64,000 nucleotides of DNA from Candidatus Omnitrophota bacterium (GCA_021108075.1 JAIORP010000029.1:10311-74310); one strand, 5' to 3'. Positions 4,810 through 39,597 are shown, counted from the stretch's first letter. Notes: a model not told the origin generated them from the letters alone. Numbers and translations: made by a program.

Positions 4810-4990
4810 GTGTCGTATTTTTACATAATCCAGAGATGATTCTAATTAGACTCAGAAAGGGGGGAGGAAAATTTAAGGTCGGGGTCATCAAGAAACTGGC
4901 ATAGTTTCGAAAGTAACCGGGATAGTTGAGTTGTTTTATCTTGGCCTATATAGATTTATAAAGCAAAATTTTTACTTTAAGGAGAATCAA

Positions 4991-6472: not shown

Positions 6473-6812
6473 GTCCTCCTTCAGGCTCGTTCAGATTTTT
6501 CTGAACAACAAGTCTTTACTTTTCAACATGCCCATAGTTTGCGTATGTAATAAACGGTATAAGGTTGTAGGACTCTCTTAAGTGAGATAAGTATAAATGT
6601 ATTTAAACATTTGCGTTGTTTCCGTCGAGTCATGTATTAACGAAAAATAAATTGAAAAAATTCACAAAATTTATTGACCGCTTTTTATATGTATGCAAGA
6701 ATTCATGAAGTAATCAATTTATTTAAAGAAGCGTATTATTTTGATACAGATGTTGCTTGTCTTTCATATATATGTCAATAATTCAAATTGTATCTTCGGA
6801 GGAAAAACACAG

Positions 6813-8210
6813 ATGAAAAAAATTGGTTTAACAATTCTTATGTTGGCCGTAGCATCTACCTCAGCCTTTGCCGCTGTGCAAAATTTGAAAGTCAGTGGAA
6901 GTGTCCGCTCAACCTTTATTCATCGGGAAAATTTTGATCTGGGGAAAGCCCCGACAGGTGATGAAATCCAGGACATCTTCATTACCAATACCCATTTGCG
7001 GCTCGACGCCGACTTGACCGACAAAGTCTCGGCGACGATCGATTTGTTAAATGAACGGGCATGGGGTAATGACACGGCAAGCGCGGGGCTGGAGACCGGC
7101 GTGAAGATCAATCTGGCCTATGTGACCTTGCGTGAGATGCTTTATTCGCCATTGACGATTGTCGTCGGACGGCAGTTGCTCAGGTATGGTAACCAATTTG
7201 TTTTAGGGGAAAGCAAAGAACCTGTTTTTCCGCCGGGATCAAGCAATCTCAGTTTTGTGGCCTTTGATCAAAGTGACGTGGAATCCTTTGACGCGGTGAA
7301 GTTTATATTAGACTATCAACCTTTAACGATTGATATCTTCTATGCCAAGATAGATTCCAATACGGTCGCCGGGGCCTCTGAAGACGATGATGATATCGAC
7401 TTTTATGGGATCTATTCCGTGTATGATTTTGAGAATGTGGCCAAGACCAAGATTGACGCCTATTTTCTGGCTAAGATTGATAAGTATGTCGCGAATAACG
7501 CATCTCCAGCGCCGGCAACAGGTATTAAACCGGATACAATTTACATGCCGGGTTTTCGGGTCAGCAGCGGTTTAGCCGAAGGCTTGTGGACCTCGCTTGA
7601 GGTTGTCTGGGAAAGGGGGAATAAAGTTTTGAACAGTGCTACTCCGGCGGAGAACCAAAGGCGCGAGGCCTTTGCGACACAGTTATTGACTTTTTACCAG
7701 CTGCCGGTCCTGAAAGACTATAAACCCGCCCTTATCCATGAATTTACATATACAACCGGGGATAGTAATAAAACGGATACCGCTTATTCCGGAGAAGTTT
7801 CAAGAAATGTCTTCACCGCCTGGGACCGTCTGTACGAAGATCAGGATAATGGTTCGATCTTGAACACGATTGTTTCTTTATCGAACGCAGTGGCGCACAC
7901 CGTTGCCTTTCAGTTTTATCCTGTGGAAGAGTTAAAGACGGTTATCGCCTGGACCGGTCTATGGACGAACACGCCGATTTATTCCGCTTCAGAAATCATT
8001 GCCCAGCCTGACGGCTTTAACGTCGTGACGTTGACCCCGGGTCAACGTGAGATCGGTTATGAAATCGATTTGTTCATGTATTATCAATACACCGAAGATG
8101 TGGAATTTAATCTTTCGCTTGGTTGGGTCATCCTTGGTGATGCTGTCAATGATACGGCTAATCCGAACGGGCCGTTCCAGGTCCTGGCCGGGACGAAAGT
8201 TAATTTTTAG
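6813..8210 (+). CDS. Porin-like outer-membrane beta-barrel protein, paralog 2 (ORF track start 6741; ATG 6813 with RBS GGAGGA preferred)
   Basis: Signal peptide MKKIGLTILMLAVASTSAFA. Shares long blocks with paralog 1 (LTD.V.ATI.L.NERAWGNDT, LAYVTLREMLYSPLT.V.GRQ, NTVAGASE.DDD.D.YGI). C-terminal ...KVNF. Confidence 0.6.
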   Translation: MKKIGLTILMLAVASTSAFAAVQNLKVSGSVRSTFIHRENFDLGKAPTGDEIQDIFITNTHLRLDADLTDKVSATIDLLNERAWGNDTASAGLETGVKINLAYVTLREMLYSPLTIVVGRQLLRYGNQFVLGESKEPVFPPGSSNLSFVAFDQSDVESFDAVKFILDYQPLTIDIFYAKIDSNTVAGASEDDDDIDFYGIYSVYDFENVAKTKIDAYFLAKIDKYVANNASPAPATGIKPDTIYMPGFRVSSGLAEGLWTSLEVVWERGNKVLNSATPAENQRREAFATQLLTFYQLPVLKDYKPALIHEFTYTTGDSNKTDTAYSGEVSRNVFTAWDRLYEDQDNGSILNTIVSLSNAVAHTVAFQFYPVEELKTVIAWTGLWTNTPIYSASEIIAQPDGFNVVTLTPGQREIGYEIDLFMYYQYTEDVEFNLSLGWVILGDAVNDTANPNGPFQVLAGTKVNF

Positions 8211-9226: not shown

Positions 9227-10360
9227 ATGAAGATTATATCAGTTGCTAATCAAAAAGGGGGTTGTGGGAAAACAACATCAGCCATTAATTTAGCATCTGC
9301 GTTAGGTCAAAACGGAAAACGCGTTTTATTGGTCGATTTGGATCCGCAAGCCCACGCTTCTTTAGGACTCAACATTGAAAGTCAAGACAGCATGTATAAT
9401 GTTATATCAAAATTAACCCCTAGAAAACTGAAGATAACAGATATTATTCATCGCGTTGAGGATTGTTTTGACATTGTGCCCTCCAATATCCTGGTCGGAA
9501 CTTTGGAGCAGGAACTCGCTGATGAAATTGGCCGTGAGTTGAAATTAACCGAAATCATGAAGCCCATGCGGGAACTTTATGATTATATCCTTATTGACTG
9601 TCCTCCGAGTTTAGGCATTTTGACGGTCAATTCGATCCGCGTCAGCGATGAGATCATTATTCCTGTTGAAACATCCCGTTTCTCCATGCAGGGAGTTGAT
9701 CACATTATGGATATCGTGAAGTTAGTCCGTGACCGTTTGAACCATGCCGTTAAATGCCGTATTTTGATTACCATGTTTGATTCCCGTCTGCGTCATTCGT
9801 TTTCCATGCTGGATACCTTCAGGCAGAAGTTTAAAGATTTATTGTTCGACACGATCGTTCATACCAATGTTAAGTTGAAAGAATCCGCTGTGATGGGGCA
9901 AACTGTTTCTTGTTTTGACAAGTACTGCCGGGGCTCTAAAGACTATTACACATTGTCTAAAGAAATTATCAGCTTAGAGCGCCAGGAAAAAGAACAAGAA
10001 GCCCGTACGGTTTTCCGTTCATTGTCCTCTCGGATGCAAAAGATGATCGAGAAAGAAACACGACAGGTCATCAGAGACACAAAGTTTGCCATCAAAGCGC
10101 CCGGGGCAAAAGCCGTTTATGTGACCGGATCATTCAATGACTGGTCTTTGGATGATTCCTGCCGCCTGCGTGAAGCTTCAATGGGGCAATGGGAAATCGA
10201 TATTCCATTAAAAGCTGGCCAATACGAATATCAGTTTATCGTTGACGGAGTATGGAAAGAAGATCCCAGCAATCCGGCGCAGGAACGCAATGTGTATGGT
10301 GACAATAATTCTGTGATGGATGTTAAATCTGAAGCGCAGCCTGTCTTTGAGAGGTTATAA
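9227..10360 (+). CDS. ParA/MinD-family ATPase fused to a C-terminal AMPK-beta-type glycogen-binding domain (CBM48)
   Basis: Deviant Walker A KGGCGKTT and ParA core (LLVDLDPQAHAS, DCPPSLGILTVNS). The C-terminal AKAVYVTGSFNDWS...GQYEYQFIVDGVWKEDPSNP...GDNNSVMDV aligns closely with the AMPK beta GBD (VYLSGSFNNWS...EHQYKFFVDGQWTHDPSEP...GTVNNIIQV). Confidence 0.8.
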   Translation: MKIISVANQKGGCGKTTSAINLASALGQNGKRVLLVDLDPQAHASLGLNIESQDSMYNVISKLTPRKLKITDIIHRVEDCFDIVPSNILVGTLEQELADEIGRELKLTEIMKPMRELYDYILIDCPPSLGILTVNSIRVSDEIIIPVETSRFSMQGVDHIMDIVKLVRDRLNHAVKCRILITMFDSRLRHSFSMLDTFRQKFKDLLFDTIVHTNVKLKESAVMGQTVSCFDKYCRGSKDYYTLSKEIISLERQEKEQEARTVFRSLSSRMQKMIEKETRQVIRDTKFAIKAPGAKAVYVTGSFNDWSLDDSCRLREASMGQWEIDIPLKAGQYEYQFIVDGVWKEDPSNPAQERNVYGDNNSVMDVKSEAQPVFERL

Positions 10361-12490: not shown

Positions 12491-12777
12491 ACTATAATTA
12501 TATAATATTTTAAAATATCAATCAATGTTTGTAAGGGTTTAATCTGGCAACTTAAATACCATTTAATGGATTTTCATTTTATGGTGCATGCGTCCTATTA
12601 AAAGACAAAAGATATCGGCAACACATTAAGCCTTTTCCATACAGAGGAACATTATTTTAAGACAATTACAGTGAATATGCAATATCAGATGTAAATTTTC
12701 GTAAAATATTGATGTTTTGGTCAAATGATTGATATAATAACAAACAATTTAGGGGTTCATGAAAAAGGGGAGAAGCA

Positions 12778-13218
12778 ATGGAAAAAAAATCAAAAAAGAA
12801 AACAGAGCAAGAACCAAAACAATTTGATTTAAGCAAAGAGTGGGAGATGACAAAGAAACACTTGCGTGTTTTTAGCAAGGAAGCGGTTGAACTTGCCAAG
12901 AAAGGAGAAAAAGAGCTGATTAAATTTTCCAAGATTGGAAAATTGCATGTTGATAATACAGCGGTATCCATTAAGAAAGAAAAATTGTATTATCAGATCG
13001 GTAAAGAATACGTGAAGTCTAAAGGAGAACCGCAGAAGAACGAAGAGTTAAAGAAACTTGTCGACGCCTTAAAGAATTTAGATAAAGAGCAAACCGTCAT
13101 CAAATCCAGAATTAAAAAGGGTCAACCAGAAAGTCCCGCTCCGGACAAAAAAACGTCCACCAAGAAAAAGACAATCAAAAAGAAAACGGTCAAGAAAAAA
13201 GTGGTTGATAGTGAATAA
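12778..13218 (+). CDS. Lysine-rich coiled-coil protein with histone-H1-like C-terminal tail (phasin/PhaF-like architecture)
   Basis: RBS AAAGGGGAG; K/E-rich helical N-terminal region; C-terminal KKTSTKKKTIKKKTVKKKVV tail. Confidence 0.5.
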   Translation: MEKKSKKKTEQEPKQFDLSKEWEMTKKHLRVFSKEAVELAKKGEKELIKFSKIGKLHVDNTAVSIKKEKLYYQIGKEYVKSKGEPQKNEELKKLVDALKNLDKEQTVIKSRIKKGQPESPAPDKKTSTKKKTIKKKTVKKKVVDSE

Positions 13219-22504: not shown

Positions 22505-23758
22505 ATGAAATTTCATGTCATCAATTTAGGTTGTGTCCGTAATTTAGTCGACGCCCAGAATTTGATCACCTGTTTGAAAGAAAAGAAAAATAAATTGGTC
22601 GATCTTGAGCAGGCCCAAGCGGTGATTATCAATACGTGCGGATTTATCGAAGACGCGAAAAAAGAGTCTATTGACACCATTCTCGACGTTATTGACCTGA
22701 AGAAGCAGGGGAAAGTTGACAAAGTCATTATCGCTGGCTGTTTGGCTCAGCGTTATCATGAAGAACTGTCCGAGGAATTCCATTCTGAGATTGATGCTAT
22801 TATGGGCGTGCCAGAATTCGAGCAGTGGTCAACCGGGAAGACACATGCCTTAAGTCCCAAACATTACCGGTATGTTAAAATTTGTGAAGGGTGTTATCAC
22901 TGCTGCAGCTTTTGTGCGATCCCGCGGATTAAGGGTTCTCTGCGGTCCCGTCCGATGGATTCCATCCTTAATGAGATCCGTTCGTTAGATGGGCAGGGCG
23001 TTAAAGAAGTTATTTTGATTGGACAAGATATCACGGCTTATGGCTTAGATTTGTACAAGCAGAAAAGATTAGCTTTTCTGTTGCGTCAGATCATTAAGGA
23101 AATAAGAAATATCAGATGGGTGCGGCTGCTGTATACGTTCCCTTCGCATATTACGGATGATTTGCTTGATTTGATCGCCGAGGATAATCTTATTTGCCGC
23201 TATCTGGATGTCCCCCTGCAGCATATCAATTCGCATGTATTAAAACGGATGAATCGTCCGCTCACGAAACGTTCAACAGTGGCATTGATCAAAAAAATCC
23301 GGAAAAAAATACCTCGGGTTGCTGTGCGGACAAGTTTTATCGTCGGGTTTCCCGGAGAGACAGCCGCTATCTTTGAGGAGCTTGTTTCTTATGTTCAAGA
23401 CACGCGTTTCGATAAGGTGGGTGTCTTTACCTACTCAAAAGAAGAAAATACCCCGGCGTTTAAATACCGTTCCAACATAACCAAGCCGGTTATGACAAGG
23501 CGCTACAATAAGTTGATGCGTGTTCAGCAGAAGATATCTCGAGAGAAACTGCGGGAATTCGTCGGGAAAAAAGTTGATGTTATTATTGATGAAAAGGACA
23601 AAGAAGCGGAGAATATGTATGTTGGGCGCACAGAATATGATGCCCCGGAGGTTGATGGATTGGTCTATGTCCATTCCCGGAGGAAATTGCCGGCAGGAAA
23701 AATTGTGCCGGTCTTGATCACTGATACCCTGGAATACGATTTGATGGGAGAATATTGA
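22505..23758 (+). CDS. rimO: Radical-SAM methylthiotransferase, RimO/MiaB family
   Basis: MTTase N-domain cysteines; radical SAM CxxxCxxC (CYHCCSFCAIP); C-terminal TRAM-like domain. Confidence 0.8.
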   Translation: MKFHVINLGCVRNLVDAQNLITCLKEKKNKLVDLEQAQAVIINTCGFIEDAKKESIDTILDVIDLKKQGKVDKVIIAGCLAQRYHEELSEEFHSEIDAIMGVPEFEQWSTGKTHALSPKHYRYVKICEGCYHCCSFCAIPRIKGSLRSRPMDSILNEIRSLDGQGVKEVILIGQDITAYGLDLYKQKRLAFLLRQIIKEIRNIRWVRLLYTFPSHITDDLLDLIAEDNLICRYLDVPLQHINSHVLKRMNRPLTKRSTVALIKKIRKKIPRVAVRTSFIVGFPGETAAIFEELVSYVQDTRFDKVGVFTYSKEENTPAFKYRSNITKPVMTRRYNKLMRVQQKISREKLREFVGKKVDVIIDEKDKEAENMYVGRTEYDAPEVDGLVYVHSRRKLPAGKIVPVLITDTLEYDLMGEY

Positions 23759-28127: not shown

Positions 28128-29555
28128 TTATTTTTCACAGGACGCATTTTTGTTTTTGTTTGAAAAATTCAACAAAATAATAACAGCCGTGATGATGGGG
28201 AAGAAATGCAGGATGCCTCTTGAGAGGGATGTCTCAGTCTGACTGATCCAGAAGAAGTGCTGCGTGAAAGAATATCCACAGATATAAACGCCAAAATACA
28301 TCAGCAGCGCAAGCAATAACAATTTTGTCTCGGTCTGTATTTTTTTGTTTATCAGGTGAATGAATGATATGAAGAATATCAACCATGTCAGGTTCCAATT
28401 GTTGGAATAGAACATGTTTGTGAGGATGCGTGTGATAACGATCCAGATTTTCTGAAATGTTTCCATTGATAAATGAAGTTTAAGGTTGTATAGGTCAAAA
28501 TGTTTTGATTCTGTGGATGTTTCGAGGCGTAAGGTTTGTCGTATTCGATAGAATTTGAAGAAATGAAACGGTAAACAGATGAGCAGACCGGGGATTGTAA
28601 AAGTAAAGAACAGTCCAATTCTCTTTTTGAGGGAATCATTTTTCCGCAGGAACAGCATATAGGCAAATATCATTATGTGGATGAACAAATACCCTGTGCC
28701 TTCCAATTTAACAAATGATGTTAATCCAGAAAAGATGGCTGCAACGATCAAGAAATCCGTTCGATGATTCTTAAACCATAGAATGAGCAATAGGAGTGCC
28801 GTGTAATTGTAATACATTATTGTGAAATCTCTGTAAGCAATCGATGAGTGATAGAGAAAGAAGTTTGAGGAAAGCAGGAAGACGCTTCCTAAAAGCGCCC
28901 AGCATTTGTTGGTAAAATTTTTTAGAAAATGGTGCTGAATAATGATGATCGACAGGGCGTAGATAGGAAAAAAAATTTTGATGACTTGATCATCCCATTC
29001 TCCCAGGGTGATGTTTAACCACGCTTCGATAAAAGGAACGTGTAGCGGATAAGTGTTATGAGGCAATGTGTCATAATAGATGAATGATTTTTCAAAATAA
29101 AAAACTTTTGCGTTAAATGAATGCGTTGATAATGTGTCCCAACTATAGACGGGTATACTTAAAGCGATTGAAAAGGTAGCGAGCAGGTTTATTCCGATAA
29201 AGTATAAAAAAAGAATTGTGAGATATTTTTCCAGTGTTGATAAAGGTTCTGTCTGGCAGGTGACTTCTTTATAGAGCGCCACGTTTCCCTTATTATTTTT
29301 TTTTGATCGGGAGTTGAGCATGAACAGCACAAAGGCGGTGAATAACAGCGGAAGATTGATCGCCGGGCTTGTCATGGGAACATTGAAGATCCCGAGAAAC
29401 AACATATGCAAAGAAATCATTCCCAGCCCAAGGCCATAGGCAAGCGCAGCCTTAAATGTCACGGAATAATTTTTTCCTCTTGATATAAAGTTGATCAATT
29501 GAAAACCTGAAAAGACGGGAATAAACAGAATGGATAATGATTTTAAAATGAGCAT
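28128..29555 (-). CDS. Polytopic membrane protein, very AT-rich (putative surface-glycan polymerase/transferase-like; hypothetical)
   Basis: 475 aa with about 12 hydrophobic segments and a strongly F/I/L/N/Y-biased composition. Confidence 0.45.
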   Translation of the reverse strand: MLILKSLSILFIPVFSGFQLINFISRGKNYSVTFKAALAYGLGLGMISLHMLFLGIFNVPMTSPAINLPLLFTAFVLFMLNSRSKKNNKGNVALYKEVTCQTEPLSTLEKYLTILFLYFIGINLLATFSIALSIPVYSWDTLSTHSFNAKVFYFEKSFIYYDTLPHNTYPLHVPFIEAWLNITLGEWDDQVIKIFFPIYALSIIIIQHHFLKNFTNKCWALLGSVFLLSSNFFLYHSSIAYRDFTIMYYNYTALLLLILWFKNHRTDFLIVAAIFSGLTSFVKLEGTGYLFIHIMIFAYMLFLRKNDSLKKRIGLFFTFTIPGLLICLPFHFFKFYRIRQTLRLETSTESKHFDLYNLKLHLSMETFQKIWIVITRILTNMFYSNNWNLTWLIFFISFIHLINKKIQTETKLLLLALLMYFGVYICGYSFTQHFFWISQTETSLSRGILHFFPIITAVIILLNFSNKNKNASCEK

Positions 29556-30301
29556 TATTCTCCTCGTACCGCTATTATATGTGATTTGCCATGAACATAT
29601 AGGGGAACATACCCTTCAGGGATATGATCAATAGCATTGTTTTTGTGAAATAAAATATAGCAATTTGCTTCTTTTCCTTTTATGTGCCGCAGGTCGAGGG
29701 GATAGAGGTGGAATGAGATGAACCGATGGATGTACATGCCCGGGTCGACGGAGAGATCATAGTCTGTTAGTAATTCAGGGATATGCGTTTCGGTCAGACG
29801 TTTTTTGCCTTCGAGTAAGAACCGATAATCATCATAAGTTGTTTTAAGAGGGAGATCCTGGTCGTAGGTGCTGTCGATTAAAATTTGGGCGTTTTTGAAT
29901 TCCGCTGACTGGCCGAAATATTGAAATAATTTGTTTAAATGAAATACATGCAGGCTTAAAAGCTGAAAACAACAAAAAGATGCGAACAGGATCATGAGTG
30001 GATTTACAAAAAGGAAAGCCAGGTTCCTGTGGTGAACCTTGAATGCCCCCAGGAATCTGGATATGAATAAAATGAGTAAAGTTGACAAATATGTAAAGTA
30101 AAAGTATTTGTAGAATTCGTGGCCGTTAATAACAGGCGCCAAGATGATATTATTACCGGGGACATATAAATTGAACAATAATAAATCAGGCAGAGACACT
30201 TTTGTCCGAAGAAAATACAGGGTGATGACGGTAAATATAAAGACGATAGAGAAGATGGTCAGTATGCCTATTCTTCGATTGTTTGACCTGGGGTCAGGCA
30301 T
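29555..30301 (-). CDS. hypothetical membrane-anchored protein
   Basis: N-terminal TM helix (ILTIFSIVFIFTVITLYFL) and further hydrophobic segments. The start overlaps the stop of the downstream gene by 1 nt (operon). Confidence 0.4.
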   Translation of the reverse strand: MPDPRSNNRRIGILTIFSIVFIFTVITLYFLRTKVSLPDLLLFNLYVPGNNIILAPVINGHEFYKYFYFTYLSTLLILFISRFLGAFKVHHRNLAFLFVNPLMILFASFCCFQLLSLHVFHLNKLFQYFGQSAEFKNAQILIDSTYDQDLPLKTTYDDYRFLLEGKKRLTETHIPELLTDYDLSVDPGMYIHRFISFHLYPLDLRHIKGKEANCYILFHKNNAIDHIPEGYVPLYVHGKSHIIAVRGE

Positions 30302-31403: not shown

Positions 31404-31432
31404 TTGACAATGATTTATATTTAGAATATATT
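31404..31432 (+). promoter_or_regulatory. Candidate sigma-70 promoter for the riboflavin operon
   Basis: TTGACA, 17 nt, TATATT. The AT-rich leader shows no FMN riboswitch signature. Confidence 0.35.
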
Positions 31433-31523
31433 ACAACAATCTAAATTGACATATAATGTTGATATCTATCATCTTTCAGCTATATACACATTATTAATTT
31501 ATAAATGAGGAGTGAGGGCCGAT

Positions 31524-32723
31524 ATGTTTAACACAATTAAGGAAATTTTGAAAGATTTGCAAAACGGAAAGTTGGTCGTTGTCATGGATGATGAAGGCCG
31601 GGAAAATGAAGGGGATTTATTGTGTGCGGCAGAGTTTATAACCCCTGACATTGTTAATTTTATGGCCAAAGAAGCTCGCGGTCTCATTTGTGTTCCTATG
31701 GAAGCCAAACGCTTAGATGCATTGGATTTGCACCCGATGAAGGTTCATGTGAGCCATAAACATCAGGAATGTGACACTGCTTGGTCTATTTCCGTGGACG
31801 CTGCTCAGGGTATCACCACCGGCATTTCAGCGTATGATCGATCTTATACTGTAAAGGTATTGATTAATGACGAATCGAAACCATCTGATTTTATTACCCC
31901 GGGACATTTATTCCCTTTAAGGGCTGTTCCTGGCGGCGTTCTTGTACGTGCAGGTCATACAGAGGCATCCGTGGATTTAACTCGTTTGGCTGGACTATTC
32001 CCTGCCGGGGTCATATGTGAGATTATGAATGACGATGGAACGATGGCACGGACAGACCAATTAAAGAATTTTGCTAGTAAGCATGGTTTGAAAATTTGTA
32101 CGATTGACAGTTTAATTGAATATTTGAGACGGTCTGAGAAATTGATATTCAAAGAAGTTGAAGTGAACTTGCCTACAATTTATGGTGATTTTCGAATGCG
32201 CGCTTACCGATCGGCGATTGACGGACAAGAGCATTTAGCGATATATATGGGCGATTTCATAGATAAAAAAGACGTTCTGGTTCGCGTACAGTCCGAATGT
32301 TTAACCGGTGATGTTTTTAGCTCGATGCGATGTGATTGCCGCCAGCAATTAGAATCGTCTATGAAGGCCATCGCCAAAGAAGGCTGCGGTGTCATCCTCT
32401 ACATGCGACAGGAAGGTCGCGGAATTGGGCTCATTAATAAGCTTAAGGCCTATCAATTGCAGGATGAGGGCATGGACACGGTTGAAGCGAATGAGGCCCT
32501 GGGTTTTAAGCCTGATTTGCGTCACTATGGTTTGGGGGCTCAAATTCTAGTTGATTTAGGGGTCAAAAATTTGCGTATTTTAACCAATAACCCACGAAAA
32601 TTGGTCGGGTTAGATGGTTATGGTCTGAAAGTGGTCGAGCGAGTCCCACTTAAAATTCCTCACAACCCAAAGAACGAGAAATACTTACAAACGAAAAAGG
32701 ATAAGTTGGGTCATTTGCTTTAA
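31524..32723 (+). CDS. ribBA: Bifunctional 3,4-dihydroxy-2-butanone-4-phosphate synthase / GTP cyclohydrolase II
   Basis: DHBP synthase block [16 protein letters not shown] cyclohydrolase II block with the zinc-binding cysteines [14 protein letters not shown] and [11 protein letters not shown]. Start preferred at ATG 31524, after the RBS GAGGAG (ORF track 31512). Confidence 0.9.
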
Positions 32724-32809
32724 TCCTGCTTGTAGGGATAGACCGAATATTTTTTTGTGTTGAGGAACGTCTTCGCCCGATGAAGTTTTATAAATAAAAT
32801 TATGCATTA

Positions 32810-32894
32810 ATACCAATTCCATTAAATAATGACTAAAACTAATTCTGCTTTTCAGAATTAAGATAGAACAATTTGTTAATGGATTTGGTATAAT
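32810..32894 (+). repeat. Copy C of the conserved intergenic element
   Basis: ataccaattccattaaataatgactaaaactaattctgcttttcagaattaagatagaacaatttgttaatggatttggtataat; the two ends form inverted repeats (ataccaattccattaa / ttaatggatttggtat). Confidence 0.6.
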
Positions 32895-32919
32895 TTGTCT
32901 TTTTAGTGAAAAATATGTT

Positions 32920-33384
32920 ATGGTTAAGATTATAGAAGCAAAAGTTAAAGGACGGGGCGTAAGGGTTGCTATTGTCGTGTCCCGTTTCAACAAGTTCATA
33001 ACAGAGAAGTTATTAAACGGTTGTGTGAATGAACTTGTCCGCTGTGGCGTCCGTAAAGGTGATATTGTCGTTGCCTGGACACCGGGTGCTTTTGAGGTCC
33101 CTTTAGTGGCCAAGAGATTTGCTCGAAAGAAAACAGTTGACGTTGTCATCGCTCTTGGAGCTGTGATACGGGGTGAAACTTATCATTTTGAAATGGTCGC
33201 GCAGGGAGCAACGCAAGGTATCATGCAGGTTAGTCTGGATACGATGAAACCGGTTATTTTTGGTGTCTTGACAACTGAAACCCTTGATCAGGCGTATAAA
33301 CGGTCAGAAGAAGATGGTGATAATAAAGGTAAGGATGCGGCTCAAGCAGCTATTGAAATGGCCTGTTTATTGGAAAAGATATAA
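32920..33384 (+). CDS. ribH: 6,7-dimethyl-8-ribityllumazine synthase
   Basis: RVAIVVSRFN, GAFEVP and ALGAVIRGET are typical RibH blocks. Confidence 0.9.
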   Translation: MVKIIEAKVKGRGVRVAIVVSRFNKFITEKLLNGCVNELVRCGVRKGDIVVAWTPGAFEVPLVAKRFARKKTVDVVIALGAVIRGETYHFEMVAQGATQGIMQVSLDTMKPVIFGVLTTETLDQAYKRSEEDGDNKGKDAAQAAIEMACLLEKI

Positions 33385-33471
33385 CGCCGATTTATTTAAA
33401 AGCCATATACTGACAAACCGGCAGAGCGAAACACGCATTTGACATACTGATCTTTACAGAAAGTTGTTATC

Positions 33472-33894
33472 ATGAGAAAGCGAACAAGAGGTCGAGAGCT
33501 AGCATTAAAAATATTATATCAGGCTGAAATTATTAGACGTGAGATCGGCTTGATGACAGACACCTTTTGGTCGGAATTAACCCGGGTTGATCCAACCGTT
33601 AAGGATTTTGCCACAAAGCTCACCTTGGGGGTTAAAAACAACCTCACTCTGATTGATGAAAAGATTTCATTTTATGCGACGAACTGGCAGTTAAAAAGAA
33701 TGGCTATCATTGACCGCAATATTTTACGACTGGGAACATTTGAGTTGATTTTTCTCCCGGAGATTCCTCCTAAAGTTTCCATTAATGAGTATGTTGAGTT
33801 AGCCAAGAAGTTCGGTGATATTGACTCGAGTAAATTTGTTAATGGTATTCTTGATAAGATCCACAAGATTGAAATAGTTTCAAAGAACGATTAA
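33472..33894 (+). CDS. nusB: transcription antitermination factor NusB
   Basis: RTRGRELALKILYQAE N-terminus, and a DRNILRLG..E-type block. Confidence 0.85.
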   Translation: MRKRTRGRELALKILYQAEIIRREIGLMTDTFWSELTRVDPTVKDFATKLTLGVKNNLTLIDEKISFYATNWQLKRMAIIDRNILRLGTFELIFLPEIPPKVSINEYVELAKKFGDIDSSKFVNGILDKIHKIEIVSKND

Positions 33895-33910
33895 CCTGAA
33901 AGGCTTCATT

Positions 33911-34747
33911 TTGTCTCCAAGTCGTCTTAATGCGGATCTTCATATCCATACGCATTTTTCAGATAGCTCATTATCTCCTCAAGATGTTGTCACTCAAGCT
34001 TATCAAAATGATATCCATTGTTTAGCGATCACTGATCATGACACGGTTGCGGGCATAGCCCCGACGATGGAGTTAGCAAAAGAATATGATATTGAAGTGA
34101 TCCCTGCCATTGAACTTTCTTCATGCTATCATAATAAAGATATTCATATCCTCGGGTATGGTTTTGATTATGAAAATATTGATATTATTGAACAATTCAA
34201 TGTTATGCAAAGAGAGCGTGTGACCCGAATGGCGTTGATGATTGAAAAGTTAAAAGCCGTTGGCATTGACAATATCACGCTTGATGAAGTTCGCTCATTG
34301 GCTTGTTCCGATTCTGTTGGCCGGCCGCATCTAGCACGCATTTTGAAGCGGAAAAAATGGGTGAAGAGTTTAAAAGAAGCCTTCATACGATTTCTAGACG
34401 AACAAGGCATTGCGTATGTGCCGAAATATAAACTTTCGCCAAAGGAGGCCATCGATTTAATTCGCAAAGCGAATGGGGTCGCTGTCTTAGCGCATCCCAT
34501 GATCACCAGAGTGGACGAACTGATCCCGCGATTCGTTGAAGATGGCTTGGACGGATTGGAAGTTTACTATCCGAATATTTCAAATACAATTATTAGACAT
34601 TACACGAAAATTACGCAGAAATATGGTATGATTTTAACCGGTGGTTCAGATGCCCACGGAGAGGGCAAGGACACAACTTTTATAGGTAAGATTAAGCTTC
34701 CATATGAAAATGTGGTACAATTAAAAAACAGAATAAGTCAGCGTTAA
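33911..34747 (+). CDS. PHP-domain phosphoesterase
   Basis: DLHIHTHFSD, AITDHDT and GGSDAHG are the PHP metal-binding motifs. Confidence 0.7.
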   Translation: MSPSRLNADLHIHTHFSDSSLSPQDVVTQAYQNDIHCLAITDHDTVAGIAPTMELAKEYDIEVIPAIELSSCYHNKDIHILGYGFDYENIDIIEQFNVMQRERVTRMALMIEKLKAVGIDNITLDEVRSLACSDSVGRPHLARILKRKKWVKSLKEAFIRFLDEQGIAYVPKYKLSPKEAIDLIRKANGVAVLAHPMITRVDELIPRFVEDGLDGLEVYYPNISNTIIRHYTKITQKYGMILTGGSDAHGEGKDTTFIGKIKLPYENVVQLKNRISQR

Positions 34748-34771
34748 GTTAACCTTTTATTTATATTCATT

Positions 34772-35902
34772 ATGCGAATAGACATTCAGTCGGGAAAAGA
34801 CGAACATAATATGTGGCAGGCCTTGCGGCTCGCTTATTTAGGGAAAGGTACTACCGCCCCAAATCCCATGGTTGGGGCAGTGATAATCAAAAATAAAAAA
34901 GTTGTCGGTACGGGTTATCATCGCAGGTGTGGCGGTGACCATGCTGAAATAATCGCCCTTAAGAAGGCTGGTGATCTTGCCAGAGGCGCGACCCTTTATA
35001 TCAATCTTGAACCTTGTCATCATGTCGGACATACACCACCATGTGTTGATCAAGTGATCCAGGCGGGAATAAAAGAAGTTTTCATCGCGATGAAAGATCC
35101 CAACCCGTTAACGAACGGCAAATCGATTCGAAGAATGCGTAAAGCCGGCATAGCGGTGCATGTCGGATTACTGCAAAAGCAGGCACTGAAATTCAATGAA
35201 ATTTTTGTGACGTATACGACAAAGAACCGGCCATTTATTACCGCCAAGATCGCACAGACATTGGATGGTAAGATTGCCGGGCGGACCGGTCAGTCCAAAT
35301 GGATTACGTCTGAGATGTCGCGGCGGTTTGCGCGACAATATCGGGACTCTTTTGATGCTATCATGGTCGGAGGCAATACTGTGAAGAGTGATAATCCCGG
35401 ATTGAATGGCAATAAAAAAAAATTGATTAAGATTGTCCTGGACTCTCATCTGGCGATTTCTAATCGTGCTAAGTTATTTGAACAGACGGAGCCTTCAAAT
35501 TGTATTCTTGCGACAACACAATTTGCCCCTGAGAAAAAAAAGAAGATGTTTCAAAACAAAGGTGTCCATGTTCTTATCCCGCCCACTCGAACTCGGTATG
35601 TTCCTTTACCCTGGTTGTTTCAGGAATTAGCAAAGAGAGAGATAACAAACGTTTTATTAGAGGGCGGGGCGCATGTTATCGGGTCTGCGTTAAAAGAACG
35701 TCTGGTCGATAAAATGATGATTTATATCGCTCCCAAATTCTTGGGTGATCAAAATGCCCTGTCTTCCATTGTCGGCTTGAACATCGAGAATGTTCAGGAT
35801 GCTTTTTATTTAGAGGATATTTTTTTTCATTATGCTTCAAGAGACGAAGACATTATCCTGGAAGGGTATCCGCGTTATTTAGATGACGACGAAAAAAAGT
35901 AA
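34772..35902 (+). CDS. ribD: Bifunctional diaminohydroxyphosphoribosylaminopyrimidine deaminase / 5-amino-6-(5-phosphoribosylamino)uracil reductase
   Basis: CMP/dCMP deaminase zinc motif HAEIIAL...PCHHVGHTPPC, plus a C-terminal RibD reductase domain. Confidence 0.85.
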   Translation: MRIDIQSGKDEHNMWQALRLAYLGKGTTAPNPMVGAVIIKNKKVVGTGYHRRCGGDHAEIIALKKAGDLARGATLYINLEPCHHVGHTPPCVDQVIQAGIKEVFIAMKDPNPLTNGKSIRRMRKAGIAVHVGLLQKQALKFNEIFVTYTTKNRPFITAKIAQTLDGKIAGRTGQSKWITSEMSRRFARQYRDSFDAIMVGGNTVKSDNPGLNGNKKKLIKIVLDSHLAISNRAKLFEQTEPSNCILATTQFAPEKKKKMFQNKGVHVLIPPTRTRYVPLPWLFQELAKREITNVLLEGGAHVIGSALKERLVDKMMIYIAPKFLGDQNALSSIVGLNIENVQDAFYLEDIFFHYASRDEDIILEGYPRYLDDDEKK

Positions 35903-35934
35903 CCTGAAGCAATTATTTTAAAAAAGGACTAAGC

Positions 35935-36552
35935 ATGTTTTCTGGTATTGTTGAAGAAACAGGTTCCATCGTTGGAATAACGCATAAAAAAAATTTATGT
36001 GTTTTAGATATCCAGGCCCAGAACGCGGGTAAGGGCACAAAGCAGGGTGACAGCGTTTCTGTCAACGGAGTCTGCCTGACCGTGACGAAAGTTCTAAAAA
36101 AAGTTTTGTCTTTTGATTTGATGCTGGAAACCCTTGAGAAAACGTCCTTGGGGCAATTATCTAAGGGTGATAAAGTTAATCTTGAGCGCGCCTTAAAAAT
36201 GAGCGACAGGATTAGTGGGCATTTCGTCACAGGTCATGTTGATGATATGGGCACAGTAAAGAAGATAATAACCGATACAAATTATACAGAGATCCAGATA
36301 TCCTTAAAAGTGAACTTGATGAAGTATATTGTGGCAAAAGGTTCGGTTAGTTTAGATGGTGTGAGCCTCACGATAGGTGACGTTAGAAAAAGAGATTTTT
36401 CTGTTTATTTAATTCCGTTTACCCTTGAAGTCACGAACTTGGGATTGAAGCAAAAAGGCGATAAAGTGAATGTCGAAACAGATATTTTAGCTAAATATAT
36501 ATTAAGCAAGGGAATCTATTCGGAATCCCCGTATGCATACAAGAAAGAATAA
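35935..36552 (+). CDS. ribE: riboflavin synthase alpha chain
   Basis: MFSGIVEETG start, and the duplicated lumazine-binding repeat (VNGVCLTV ... LDGVSLTI). Confidence 0.85.
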   Translation: MFSGIVEETGSIVGITHKKNLCVLDIQAQNAGKGTKQGDSVSVNGVCLTVTKVLKKVLSFDLMLETLEKTSLGQLSKGDKVNLERALKMSDRISGHFVTGHVDDMGTVKKIITDTNYTEIQISLKVNLMKYIVAKGSVSLDGVSLTIGDVRKRDFSVYLIPFTLEVTNLGLKQKGDKVNVETDILAKYILSKGIYSESPYAYKKE

Positions 36553-36560
36553 TCGTCCTT

Positions 36561-37799
36561 GTGAAAAAGAGAGTTGTCATAACAGGATTGGGCGTTCTCG
36601 CCAGTAATGGTGAGGGGAAAGACGCTTATTGGGAGTCCTTAGAAAAAGGCCAAGTCGGATATAAGCCGATCACCCTGTTCGATGCAGAGCCGTACCTCGT
36701 TAAGCAAGCCGGGGAGATTCGTGATTTTGACCCAAAGCAATACGTCGGGAAGAAAGGTTTGCGTTCATTAGATCGCAGCACAAAACTTTTAATATCCGTC
36801 GCGCGTTTAGCGATTGATGATAGCCATTTGGTCATTACGGACAACAATACCGATGAGGTTGGTGTGGCTGTCGGATCGACATTGGGCAGTTTGAAAAGCA
36901 TTAGTGATTTTGATGTCGTTACTTTGAAAGAAGGTCCACGATATACCAATCCTGCGCATTTTCCGAACACGGTCATCAATTCTCCCGCCAGCCAGGTCTC
37001 CATTTGGAATAATATTCAAGGGTTTAATACAACGATTTCAACAGGATTCACGGCGAGCCTCGACGCATTGACTTACGCGTATGATTTTATTCAGATGGAC
37101 CGGGCCAAGGTCGTTTTGGCTGGAGGGGTTGAAGAATTGTGTCGTGAGACGTTTCATGGGTTTTACCAGTTGAATTTCTTGTCAGGATCGATTCAGGACC
37201 AAGAGTTTATTAATTGTCCGTTTGACGCTCGTCGGAACGGGATCACCTTTGGGGAGGGTGCTTGCTTGATGCTCTTAGAAGATTATTCCCATGCTGTTGA
37301 TCGACGGGCCGCGGTTCTTGCGGAGGTCGCTGGTTTCGGTTATTATTTTGACCCCTACCGAATCAATAAATATAATCCTAAAGGTACAGGGATGATTCAA
37401 TCCATGAAGCGGGCTTTATTCTCCGCTCAAATGATCCCGGAAGATATCGATTGTATTTTTGCGAATGCCAACTCAACACAAGCGGCAGACTTAGTCGAAA
37501 CAGAAGCCATTAAAGATGTTTTTTCTAAATGGGCTTATAACGTGCCGGTCACGTCAATTAAGTCGATGGTCGGAGAGTGTTTTAGTGTTTCCGGGGCTTT
37601 ATCTGTTGCTGCAAGTCTGGGTAGCATTCAACGAAATTTTATCCCTGCCACGGTCGGCTATGAGACAGCTGATCCAGATTGCGATCTTGATTATACGCCT
37701 TGTCTCTCAACAACCGTAAAGCTCAACAATATCATGATTACGAATTTTAGCCCTTCAGGTAGTCATACTTGTTTGATCTTGAAACGTTTTCAAGCTTAA
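36561..37799 (+). CDS. Beta-ketoacyl-ACP synthase (KAS I/II, FabF-like) homologue lacking the Cys-His-His catalytic triad (predicted non-catalytic)
   Basis: 412 aa, collinear with FabF. The active-site Cys position reads STGFTAS (Cys to Phe). The first His block reads FANANSTQAAD (His to Asn). The second reads KSMVGECFSVSGA (His to Glu, Lys retained). Confidence 0.75.
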   Translation: MKKRVVITGLGVLASNGEGKDAYWESLEKGQVGYKPITLFDAEPYLVKQAGEIRDFDPKQYVGKKGLRSLDRSTKLLISVARLAIDDSHLVITDNNTDEVGVAVGSTLGSLKSISDFDVVTLKEGPRYTNPAHFPNTVINSPASQVSIWNNIQGFNTTISTGFTASLDALTYAYDFIQMDRAKVVLAGGVEELCRETFHGFYQLNFLSGSIQDQEFINCPFDARRNGITFGEGACLMLLEDYSHAVDRRAAVLAEVAGFGYYFDPYRINKYNPKGTGMIQSMKRALFSAQMIPEDIDCIFANANSTQAADLVETEAIKDVFSKWAYNVPVTSIKSMVGECFSVSGALSVAASLGSIQRNFIPATVGYETADPDCDLDYTPCLSTTVKLNNIMITNFSPSGSHTCLILKRFQA

Positions 37800-37826
37800 T
37801 CCTATTGATCTAGTAAGGAGACCGTC

Positions 37827-38579
37827 ATGAGCAATTCAAATGCTAAAGTTGCGATCATTACCGGTGGCGCGCGCGGAATCGGTCGTGCGATCGTTTTGGA
37901 ATTAGCGTCTCAGGGTTACAGTGTCGCTTTTAATTTTAAATCAAGCCATAAGGTCGCCGCTGAATTAGAGCAAGAGGTTCAAGCGCTGAACGCCACGGCA
38001 AAAGGATATGCCGTTGATATAGGAGATGGTGAGGCCGTTAAACAATGGATCGAGCGAGTCAAACAGGATTTTCGACGCATTGATGTGCTCGTGAATAATG
38101 CCGGGATTATTAGGGATAAAGCGCTGATGATGATGACGTTTGAGGACTGGCAAAGTGTTTTAGACACGAATTTGAATGGGATGTTTTATGCTGCACGAGC
38201 TTGTATTGTGAGTTTTCTGAAGCAGAAATCAGGTAAGATTTTAAATATTTCATCTGTTAGTGGCGTTTCTGGAATGGCACGCCAAACGAATTATTCTGCG
38301 TCAAAAGGGGGCATGAATGCTTTCACCAGGTCTTTAGCAAAAGAGGTTGCGGCCTACGGGATAACTGTGAATGCTCTTTGTCCGGGATTCATTGAAACGG
38401 ACATGTTGAGGGGTTTAAACGAAAAGCAAAGACAGGAATTTCAAGCAAGGATTCCTTTGGCTCGTTTTGGGAATGTCGATGATGTCGCGAAAACAGCAGC
38501 ATTTTTATTGTCGGAAGAAGCCGCATATATTACGGGCCAAATCATTCAGGTCGATGGTGGCTTGAATATGCGGTTTTAG
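37827..38579 (+). CDS. fabG: 3-oxoacyl-ACP reductase (SDR family)
   Basis: TGGARGIGRAI cofactor motif, NNAG, and the catalytic YSASKGG block. Confidence 0.8.
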   Translation: MSNSNAKVAIITGGARGIGRAIVLELASQGYSVAFNFKSSHKVAAELEQEVQALNATAKGYAVDIGDGEAVKQWIERVKQDFRRIDVLVNNAGIIRDKALMMMTFEDWQSVLDTNLNGMFYAARACIVSFLKQKSGKILNISSVSGVSGMARQTNYSASKGGMNAFTRSLAKEVAAYGITVNALCPGFIETDMLRGLNEKQRQEFQARIPLARFGNVDDVAKTAAFLLSEEAAYITGQIIQVDGGLNMRF

Positions 38580-38629
38580 TATTAAATATCTTTATCTGTA
38601 AAGAACTTTGATTAAAGAAAGGATATAAT

Positions 38630-39073
38630 ATGATTATAGACATAGCACAAATACAGAAGATCATTCCTCATCGATTCCCTTTTTTATTGATTGACCGCGT
38701 TATTGAATGTGAACCGAACGAAAAACTGGTTGCCATTAAGAATGTCTCGGTTAATGAGCCTTTTTTTGTCGGGCATTTCCCCGAGGAAAAAGTTATGCCA
38801 GGGGTTCTTATCGTTGAGGCCATGGCACAGGCCGGGTGCATTTATTATTATTATAGTAAAAATTTGCAGACAACCCATAATGACCTGGTCTTCTACTTGG
38901 CGAAGATAACAGCTAAGTTTAAAGCCCCGGTTATTCCAGGGGACCAGCTGCGCATAGAAGTCCGCTCGGTTAAACTATTATCAAAGGTTGGGTTTTTTAA
39001 AGCAGTTGGCTATGTCGGCGATAGGATAGTGGCGGAAGCTGAGATCGGTTTTAGTGTTAATACCCGGAAATAA
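38630..39073 (+). CDS. fabZ: 3-hydroxyacyl-ACP dehydratase
   Basis: HRFPFLLIDRV...HFP..PVMPGVLIVEAMAQ is the FabZ hotdog signature. Confidence 0.85.
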   Translation: MIIDIAQIQKIIPHRFPFLLIDRVIECEPNEKLVAIKNVSVNEPFFVGHFPEEKVMPGVLIVEAMAQAGCIYYYYSKNLQTTHNDLVFYLAKITAKFKAPVIPGDQLRIEVRSVKLLSKVGFFKAVGYVGDRIVAEAEIGFSVNTRK

Positions 39074-39129: not shown

Positions 39130-39597
39130 TTGAACGTTAGTTTTATCAGCCATGAAGGATATATGAAAGAAGATGAGATATTAAAAGGTTTGATTCCTTG
39201 GACGATTGATGAATTTAAGGACGTTAATGCTCATTTGTATCACCTGCTTCAGAGACCTAAGGACGATTGGGATTTTGCGGATATCAATCTGCCCATTGAT
39301 GTGTATGAACCGATCGGGCAAATCGCGCAATATATGAAAAAGAAATATGACGATGACAGCTTTTTTAAGGCTCATTTTATACGTTACAATAATATCTTGC
39401 GGTTTTTGAGGGAGTATAAAGGAAAATTAATCCATTCAGGTTTTTTAGAAGACGGGGCGATTCCCTTGATTAAAGATCAATTGTTAAAGTGCCTTTGCGT
39501 GATGCCATTTAGCGAACTGAGATTAACGGATGAAGGATTTATGGATTATTGTTTTGATTTGAACGAGGTGATTCTCAAGACCAAAGAAATGATGTGA
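39130..39597 (+). CDS. hypothetical protein
   Basis: 155-aa ORF co-directional with the fab-like trio. No motif recognised. Confidence 0.4.
   Translation: MNVSFISHEGYMKEDEILKGLIPWTIDEFKDVNAHLYHLLQRPKDDWDFADINLPIDVYEPIGQIAQYMKKKYDDDSFFKAHFIRYNNILRFLREYKGKLIHSGFLEDGAIPLIKDQLLKCLCVMPFSELRLTDEGFMDYCFDLNEVILKTKEMM

Follow-up and report, generated by a model that had tools for sequence, protein, structure and literature searches.

Positions 36,561 to 39,073 of a 64,000-nucleotide stretch of DNA from a Candidatus Omnitrophota bacterium (GCA_021108075.1 JAIORP010000029.1:10311-74310; the whole stretch is called the window below) encode a homologue of β-ketoacyl-acyl carrier protein (ACP) synthase II (KAS II, FabF) without the catalytic residues, here named KSmut, followed by a FabG-type reductase and a FabZ dehydratase. 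Overall, it appears probable that KSmut is a non-catalytic, chain-length-factor-like subunit of a heterodimeric, elongating β-ketoacyl-ACP synthase, the catalytic subunit of which would be a ketosynthase (KS) of the amxFabF2 type with an intact Cys-His-His triad, encoded outside the window. KSmut belongs to the amxFabF-mut kind of protein recently described from anammox bacteria; what is new is the phylum and the split context among core operons. The original prediction, made from the sequence of the window, had already suggested a chain-length-factor-like partner subunit, and this is still the best reading, with amxFabF-mut as the closest solved relative.

The gene and the residues on which the assignment depends are located as follows.

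36561-37799, + strand: KSmut, a 412-aa protein of the KAS II fold without the triad, GTG start, PF00109 and PF02801
36960-36974, + strand: FPNTV motif, residues 134-138, in the helix-loop-helix, aligned with Phe135, Thr138, and Val139 of amxFabF-mut
37047-37049, + strand: codon of Phe163, from the alignment to B. subtilis FabF (PDB code: 4ls5); Phe in 121 of 121 family members, that of the window included
37464-37466, + strand: codon of Asn302, from the same alignment; Asn in 117 of 121, that of the window included
37560-37577, + strand: KSMVGE motif with Lys334 and Glu339; both residues in 121 of 121, that of the window included

When KSmut was aligned to 4ls5 with HMMER, STGFTAS was matched with VTACATG, FANANST with NAHGTST, and KSMVGEC with KSMTGHL. 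The nucleophilic Cys is replaced by Phe163, the first catalytic His by Asn302, and the second by Glu339, while Lys334 is kept. No indel occurs near any of the three sites, and the Cys and His residues are therefore not simply shifted in the alignment. The 120 closest homologues in the database (59-68% identity) have the same Phe, Lys, and Glu without exception, and Asn in 116 of them (Asp in three, Gly in one); the gate Phe of KAS enzymes is likewise absent, with Pro at its position in 110 and Val in 10. The collinear KAS II homologue with three replaced catalytic residues and a retained Lys, as originally predicted, is thus borne out by the 4ls5 alignment and by the family.

In Pfam both KS domains, PF00109 and PF02801, cover the full length of KSmut. 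A monomer model by AlphaFold2 (mean predicted local distance difference test score, pLDDT, 84.5; predicted template modelling score, pTM, 0.89) superimposes on B. subtilis FabF (4ls5/4ls8) with a template modelling (TM) score of 0.91. Since the PDB library of Foldseek is older than 9s5h, the structure comparison was limited to confirming the KAS II fold. Compared with canonical KAS II, to which it is collinear over the full length with 36% identity, KSmut shares the fold; however, it lacks the triad and the gate Phe, its score of 332.9 bits on TIGR03150 (the fabF equivalog) is below the cut-off of 493.75, and it is not expected to act as an enzyme in homodimeric form.

Three lost catalytic residues and a score under the FabF cut-off could also be expected of a decaying fabF pseudogene, or of an annotation or alignment artefact. 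However, the frame is intact and full length, the fold is predicted confidently, the synteny is conserved, and 435 relatives are present in species genomes. Therefore, since the same substitutions are fixed in the homologues, this explanation can practically be dismissed, and KSmut is a conserved pseudoenzyme.

The best PDB match of KSmut is chain C of 9s5h (E 9e-112, 377 bits, about 45% identity), whereas the best active FabF among the PDB matches reaches E 4e-75 and 256 bits. The 9s5h entry is the amxFabF2/amxFabF-mut complex of Brocadia fulgida (bioRxiv 10.64898/2026.05.19.726425). The two anammox proteins co-purify and are active only jointly, in malonyl-ACP decarboxylation and acetoacetyl-ACP formation, and amxFabF-mut by itself has no activity (10.64898/2026.05.19.726425). 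Residues Phe135, Thr138, and Val139 in a helix-loop-helix of amxFabF-mut line the acyl tunnel of the active partner, and mutants of these residues have a shifted chain-length preference (10.64898/2026.05.19.726425). In the crystal of the S. brodae amxFabF-mut homodimer, residues 110-130 of the helix-loop-helix are disordered; they are ordered in the heterodimer (10.64898/2026.05.19.726425).

KSmut and amxFabF-mut (KustE3606/Broful02170; PDB codes: 9s5h/9s5i) are alike in several respects. Both have 412 residues and the same fold; Asn and Glu likewise occupy the two His positions, Lys is kept, and K-S-M-x-G-E is common to KSmut and 9s5h_C. The FPNTV tunnel motif is conserved: it is invariant in one alignment of the family (A3), and Phe134 and Thr137 are invariant in a broader one (A1). 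The pattern FP[NK]TV[IML]N[SA]P was found in 456 stretches of 185,579 GTDB species genomes, and 435 of these are relatives. By analogy to the amxFabF-mut preprint, FPNTV may line the tunnel of a partner in the Omnitrophota as well. The sole low-confidence stretch of the KSmut monomer model, residues 109-139, corresponds to the segment that is disordered in the amxFabF-mut homodimer, which is consistent with heterodimer formation. KSmut therefore has the marks of the amxFabF-mut type, namely the loss of the triad with Lys and Glu in place, the closeness to amxFabF-mut, and the tunnel residues, except for an adjacent FabF2, which is missing in the window.

There are also differences. KSmut comes from the Omnitrophota, a phylum without known ladderanes, and in the window it stands apart from FabF2 and ACP, behind the rib operon and in front of FabG, whereas the anammox cluster has no FabG. 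Neither a CrtI-like desaturase nor a B12-radical-SAM gene is found near KSmut in the window, and its context suggests core rather than specialised lipid synthesis.

A phylogeny of triad-less KAS homologues, which the original prediction had proposed, was constructed by the neighbour-joining method (403 columns, 100 bootstraps). One clade with 87% bootstrap support holds the dead-KS proteins: those of Omnitrophota, other stand-alone forms, amxFabF-mut, and the C-terminal halves of natural fusions. KSmut is not specifically sister to the anammox proteins within it. The FabF2-type KS of Omnitrophota and of anammox bacteria form a clade of their own (97%) as sister groups, distinct from canonical FabF. 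An exhaustive search with HMMER in cluster representatives gave dozens of clusters at 50% identity with stand-alone, triad-less KS bearing the FPNTV and K...E signature, as well as many natural fusions with a length of about 800 aa; these join an N-terminal active KS (C-H-K-H) to a C-terminal dead KS of the FPNTV type (P0242, P0246, P0250, P0255, and about 50 more representatives). One member of the fusion clusters is labelled as a Helarchaeota metagenome-assembled genome and one as a Moorella 'chain length factor'. As Rosetta-stone evidence, the fusions indicate that a dead KS of this type acts jointly with an active one. The dead half clusters with KSmut; however, KSmut is a separate polypeptide, its identity to the fused forms is only 25-34%, and these belong to other taxa, most of them unnamed. 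A didomain that fuses a KS to a chain-length factor (CLF) is also contained in polyunsaturated fatty acid synthases.

The CLF or KS-β of type II polyketide synthases (ActI-ORF2, PDB code: 1tqy_B; Iga12 of ishigamide; ApeC of aryl polyenes) is likewise a nucleophile-free paralogue of the KS fold that forms a heterodimer with an active KS and shapes its tunnel. KSmut is nevertheless distant from it, since 1tqy_B is matched with E 1.4e-35, weaker than every FabF (best 4e-75), and the Gln at the Cys position is absent, with Phe163 in its place. Neither this Gln nor a close kinship to KS-β was thus found. Moreover, KSmut in the window is not translationally coupled to a KS-α and is set among FabG and FabZ, that is, among fully reducing chemistry of the fatty-acid synthase (FAS) type. 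Affiliations to the aryl-polyene (ApeI/ApeP, FlxB) and cispentacin (AmcF/AmcE) systems were also tried and rejected, because the scores are far under the curated cut-offs.

Gene layouts were counted in the 80 best GTDB loci of KSmut relatives, all of which are of Omnitrophota type by synteny and which include the complete genome of Ca. Velamenicoccus archaeovorus (CP019384), where the cassette is complete. By label, 50 of them are Omnitrophota, 29 are 'uncultured Planctomycetales/Planctomycetia', and one is 'uncultured bacterium'. Two loci were too truncated to be classified, and the others have one of three layouts.

Layout A, that of the window, 61 of 80 loci: ribE-KSmut-FabG-FabZ, with no KS or ACP within ±10 kb
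Layout B, 12 of 80 loci: KSmut-FabG-ACP-FabZ-FabF2
Layout C, 5 of 80 loci: (FabG)-ACP-KSmut-hotdog-FabF2

Public Omnitrophota genomes with the layout of the window include OY759724.1 and GCA_040960315.1. KSmut stands beside a FabF2-type KS in 17 of the 80 loci, and a KSmut-type gene lies within 4 kb in 44 of the 51 metagenomic FabF2-type loci with usable flanks. The FabF2-type KS of the relatives are 49-56% identical to Brocadia amxFabF2 and about 39-41% identical to B. subtilis FabF, and they score 421-448 on the FabF equivalog (cut-off 494). C-H-K-H and the gate Phe are kept in 120 of 120 Omnitrophota FabF2-type KS. The partner came to light via the GTDB loci and via a search that started from an Omnitrophota FabF2; Brocadia amxFabF2 as the query gave only anammox proteins among the 120 matches listed.

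Both pieces of a split arrangement are present on one contig of 230 kb (JBFOMO010000179.1). At 33-46 kb the order is ribBA-ribH-nusB-PHP-ribD-ribE-KSmut-FabG-...-FabZ-acylphosphatase-ligA, and at 157-178 kb, about 125 kb away, it is recG-rsmD-coaD-yceD-rpmF-plsX-fabH-fabD-hotdog-FabF2. The same FabF2 locus in the plsX operon is found in L092, L172, and L173. On a further contig (k141_250831), yceD-rpmF-plsX-fabH-fabD-fabG-ACP-KSmut-hotdog are followed by two inserted genes and FabF2; KSmut is therefore at the position where fabF normally follows acpP. By the arrangement of the split-locus contigs, the partner of KSmut in the window would be placed at the end of the plsX operon, and judging from sequence and gene order it is most likely a dedicated FabF2-type KS outside the window and not a canonical FabF.

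The 61 loci without a nearby partner gene might instead mean that KSmut has no KS partner at all and acts as a homodimeric pseudoenzyme, be it as a scaffold for acyl-ACP or lipid, as a regulator of FabG/FabZ, or as an enzyme whose non-Claisen activity via Lys334 and Glu339 would be new. The crystallisation of S. brodae amxFabF-mut as a homodimer would fit this, and the invariance of Lys334 and Glu339 could indicate residual chemistry. However, amxFabF-mut is inactive alone, and its helix-loop-helix is disordered in that homodimer. By the established KAS mechanism, Phe, Asn, and Glu are unable to support acyl transfer or decarboxylation, and the most conserved motif of KSmut is the very one that lines the tunnel of a partner. 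Since the linkage to FabF2 and the natural fusions of KS and dead KS are pervasive as well, a KSmut without partner appears very improbable.

The original prediction had proposed the housekeeping KAS as the heterodimer partner, and a metagenomic locus (L151) bears directly on this. It reads KSmut-FabG-ACP-FabZ-FabF2, an alpha/beta hydrolase, a CrtI-family desaturase, and then a canonical rpmF-plsX-fabH-fabD-fabG-acpP-fabF operon, and three of its proteins score as follows.

Canonical FabF of L151, on TIGR03150: 650.8 (cut-off 493.75)
Canonical AcpP of L151, on TIGR00517: 123.6 (cut-off 70.45)
Cassette ACP of L151, on TIGR00517: 59.9 (cut-off 70.45)

With a canonical FabF available on the same contig, the dead KS sits in the FabF2 cassette and not with that FabF. 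As the adjacent partners in the relatives are dedicated FabF2-type KS, the pairing with a housekeeping KAS is probably wrong for this lineage.

The proposed heterodimer may then work as follows. KSmut would keep the KAS II fold and dimer interface, and its FPNTV helix-loop-helix would join the wall of the acyl tunnel of the FabF2-type partner, by which it may stabilise the active subunit and set its chain-length preference. KSmut itself is expected neither to bind acyl groups covalently nor to decarboxylate malonyl-ACP. The 3-ketoacyl-ACP made by the heterodimer would be reduced and dehydrated by the adjoining FabG and FabZ. KSmut-FabG-FabZ would be part of a widespread cassette (KSmut, FabG, ACP, FabZ, FabF2) that was moved beside the riboflavin operon, and this cassette may serve as, or have merged with, the main type II FAS.

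Several points weigh against this proposal. In vitro, the activity of the anammox heterodimer was confined to malonyl-ACP decarboxylation and acetoacetyl-ACP formation, and elongation was not demonstrated (10.64898/2026.05.19.726425). At the Cys position the anammox proteins have Val or Thr, whereas KSmut has Phe. In a net-charge count of the helix-loop-helix and the partner helix, the electrostatic complementarity of the anammox pair was not reproduced, and the reference amxFabF-mut itself was not positive. The partner KS and ACP are absent from the 64-kb window and from ±10 kb of all 61 layout-A loci; therefore, the partner in the genome of the window is inferred from relatives only. The closest database match to KSmut is 68% identical, and the entry of the source genome itself is not among the matches. 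Finally, L151 shows that the cassette is a second, parallel system in some organisms, and a canonical FabF may be present elsewhere in the genome of the window.

The neighbours of KSmut in the window, all on the same strand, are listed below.

31512-36552, + strand: ribBA, ribH, nusB, PHP-domain gene, ribD, and ribE, upstream of KSmut (open reading frames and family matches)
35935-36552, + strand: ribE, riboflavin synthase (open reading frame call)
37827-38579, + strand: FabG-type 3-oxoacyl-ACP reductase, a 250-aa short-chain dehydrogenase/reductase, by TIGR01830 and PRK12826.1-2 scores, motifs intact
38630-39073, + strand: FabZ 3-hydroxyacyl-ACP dehydratase, a 147-aa hot-dog protein that passes the NCBIfam FabZ equivalogs

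FabG keeps its active-site motifs TGGARGIG and YSASK. It scores just below the cut-off of TIGR01830 (296.5 vs 297.75) and passes PRK12826.1-2 (254.6 vs 222). By its sequence it is a FabG of the cassette type, sharing 58% identity with the cassette FabG of L151 as against 42% with the canonical FabG of that locus. FabZ keeps both the catalytic His (GHFP) and Glu (VEAMAQ) and is above both NCBIfam FabZ equivalog cut-offs (169 vs 113, 168 vs 155). Its best PDB matches are amxFabZ of anammox bacteria (7qv0, 8ayb, 8ayc, 8ayi); a specific relationship to amxFabZ was rejected, because the margin over ordinary FabZ is too small.

A tblastn search of the window found no other KS or ACP, in agreement with the original prediction that none is encoded alongside, and no FabF2, CrtI-like, or reductase genes. 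No tailoring genes were seen near the KSmut-FabG-FabZ trio among the family matches of the window. A single radical-SAM protein was seen in the window (22505-23758); it carries UPF0004 and TRAM domains and no B12-binding domain, no radical-SAM query having been run. The rest of the window is core chromosome, with a sigma factor, PNPase, FtsK, RodZ, pgsA, pgpA, ligA, xerC, and the dcw cluster.

The gaps between ribE and KSmut, KSmut and FabG, and FabG and FabZ are 8, 27, and 50 nucleotides, and the order of rib genes and KSmut is kept in L001, L003, L005, and L089 and in the 61 layout-A loci. The rib genes and KSmut-FabG-FabZ are therefore probably one transcription unit. This rests on spacing and synteny, because a promoter and terminator scan of 31.3-41.5 kb was not above shuffled expectation; a promoter-like site with an 11/12 match at 31404-31432 comes from this same scan. 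The rib genes upstream are outside the lipid function.

The original prediction considered the trio a specialised lipid module, and an accessory system of this kind, which would make hydroxy-fatty acids, fatty alcohols, ether lipids, or polyene-like products parallel to a canonical FAS II and in which KSmut would act with a dedicated or housekeeping KS, is the least improbable of the alternatives. The cassette of L151 lies beside a full canonical operon, cassette ACPs are under the AcpP cut-off (59.9 vs 70.45), and no enoyl reductase was seen in any of the cassettes. Behind the cassettes there is often a gene of the NAD_binding_4, thioester-reductase-like type, a CrtI-family desaturase, or both, as in the anammox cluster. 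The anammox pair favours short C6-C8 chains (10.64898/2026.05.19.726425), as does amxFabZ.

These points are met by others from the clade of the window itself. In five contigs (k141_250831, L088, L092, L172, L173), the usual place of canonical fabG-acpP-fabF after fabD is taken by cassette genes, and no canonical FabF was seen; in k141_250831 the ACP and FabG of the operon are of the cassette type. These contigs speak for a takeover or merger, the heterodimer system then serving the main FAS II. FabZ of the window passes the FabZ cut-offs and FabG its subfamily model, and across the phylum KSmut is near-universal, with strong conservation; its gene lies among core genes and, in the window, has no tailoring genes beside it. 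A pairing with the housekeeping FabF, which the accessory reading allows, is contradicted by L151. Overall, an accessory module is considered unlikely. Since the place of fabF in the rpmF-plsX-fabH-fabD operon of relatives is taken by KSmut and FabF2, the specialised module of the original prediction is doubtful and probably wrong for this lineage; a specialised product is still possible.

Judged by gene content and order, the KSmut-FabG-FabZ trio appears to be a part of the main FAS II set that was relocated. If the heterodimer exists, we lean slightly towards a core role of it in fatty-acid synthesis. A more far-reaching proposal, to which we would give somewhat less than an even chance, is that a KS/CLF-like heterodimer displaced the homodimeric FabF in the lineage of the window and became the main or sole elongating enzyme of primary fatty-acid synthesis, and that the FabG, ACP, and FabZ of the cassette replaced fabG-acpP-fabF and were scattered into the rib and rpmF-plsX operons. 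A literature search on fatty-acid synthesis in Omnitrophota or Velamenicoccus found nothing on this topic.

The comparison to anammox 'Cluster I' (reference loci L090 and L091) gives a similar picture. This cluster reads ACP-FabZ-FabF2-FabFmut-CrtI-like desaturase-B12 radical SAM, of which the window has only KSmut and FabZ, together with a FabG that is foreign to the anammox cluster. The cassettes of Omnitrophota and of other metagenomic lineages hold its first four genes and differ from it by the addition of FabG. Some of them also have the desaturase, that is, CrtI-family (phytoene-desaturase-like) genes that mirror the anammox 'PDH' gene (L151:12063-13559, L048:14715-16169, L086:16024-17466). 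No B12-radical-SAM gene was found beside any non-anammox cassette examined. Since the same pair occurs in non-anammox cassettes, the KS pair is not specific to ladderane producers. As an extension of the displacement proposal, the anammox 'ladderane' core (ACP-FabZ-FabF2-FabFmut and CrtI-like desaturase) would have arisen as a derived copy of an older cassette that is widespread beyond anammox bacteria, and would not be an invention specific to ladderanes.

The dead-partner, two-protein KS has so far been described only in ladderane-making anammox bacteria, and here its probable counterpart is found in apparent core lipid genes of the uncultured phylum Omnitrophota. This reading explains why a conserved, dead fabF gene lies among core genes of many Omnitrophota genomes, where the automatic annotation 'beta-ketoacyl-ACP synthase family protein' or 'synthase II' would mislead metabolic reconstructions. 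The KS pair is present together with ACP and FabZ, and often also with a CrtI-like desaturase, in Omnitrophota and unnamed metagenomic lineages; this narrows the part of the anammox cluster that can be ladderane-specific, and non-anammox systems are now on offer for studying the pair. If the pair is indeed the main elongation enzyme, it would be the first heterodimeric KS/CLF that carries out primary fatty-acid synthesis.

Other genes accompany the FabF2-type KS of the relatives. Just upstream lies a FabZ-like hot-dog protein (L088:9562-10008, L092:8890-9330, L087:7453-7860, L048:7838-8335), in which GHFP is changed to GQ.., GD.., or similar and Glu is kept, and which is below the FabZ cut-offs. 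This His-less protein may be paired with the dead KS system, either as a second pseudoenzyme or as one subunit of a heteromeric dehydratase. In all three layouts a conserved protein of about 325-365 aa is encoded directly downstream of FabF2 (L172:9306-10346, L173:9246-10223, L085:13967-15064, L048:9757-10836, and L086:14391-15434, in the last of these a few genes away), usually followed by a large HisKA_7TM membrane sensor. It matches NAD_binding_4/Epimerase in Pfam (L086, L172, L173) and is thioester reductase-like; L085 and L048 were assigned by N-terminal sequence only. This gene hints at the formation of fatty aldehydes or alcohols, or at an unrecognised reductase step.

Multiple small genes for 23S_rRNA_IVP or bAvd-like four-helix bundles (L172:6142-6510 and 12615-12977, L173:4304-4660, L088:15224-15583) are dispersed within the plsX-fabH-fabD-FabF2 operons of relatives and in their vicinity, even between fabH and fabD, and AAA_14/DUF4143 genes are inserted among the cassette genes of L086 and L173. 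A third, very divergent KS-like open reading frame (437 aa, about 26% identity to B. subtilis FabF) comes directly after FabF2 in two loci of layout B (L076:14048-15361, L075:8093-8320). Just upstream of KSmut in Velamenicoccus archaeovorus (L085:8565-9505) and in L076 (8479-9503), the reading frames look like an octanoyl/lipoyl transferase (LipB) and a small lipoyl- or biotinyl-domain protein, their N-terminal sequences having been read by eye; this is of note in view of the C6-C8 chains that the anammox pair is reported to prefer.

In the window itself, the PHP-domain (phosphoesterase) gene at 33911-34747 (+ strand) lies between nusB and ribD, a placement that is conserved across the Omnitrophota loci; it could account for the dephosphorylation in riboflavin synthesis, a step that often lacks an assigned gene. 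Three reading frames have no Pfam match: 39130-39597 (+ strand, 155 aa), 28128-29555 (- strand, 475 aa), and 29555-30301 (- strand, 248 aa). Compared with most relatives, the window has an insertion between FabZ and the acylphosphatase gene that comprises the first of these, which has no NCBIfam match either, a DUF3592 protein, and an AIM24-family protein. Further away, 4931-6406, 6741-8210, and 9227-10360 (+ strand) encode two tandem paralogues of Alginate_exp-type outer-membrane porins as well as a fusion of a ParA/MinD-like ATPase with a glycogen-binding domain (AMPK1_CBM/CBM48).

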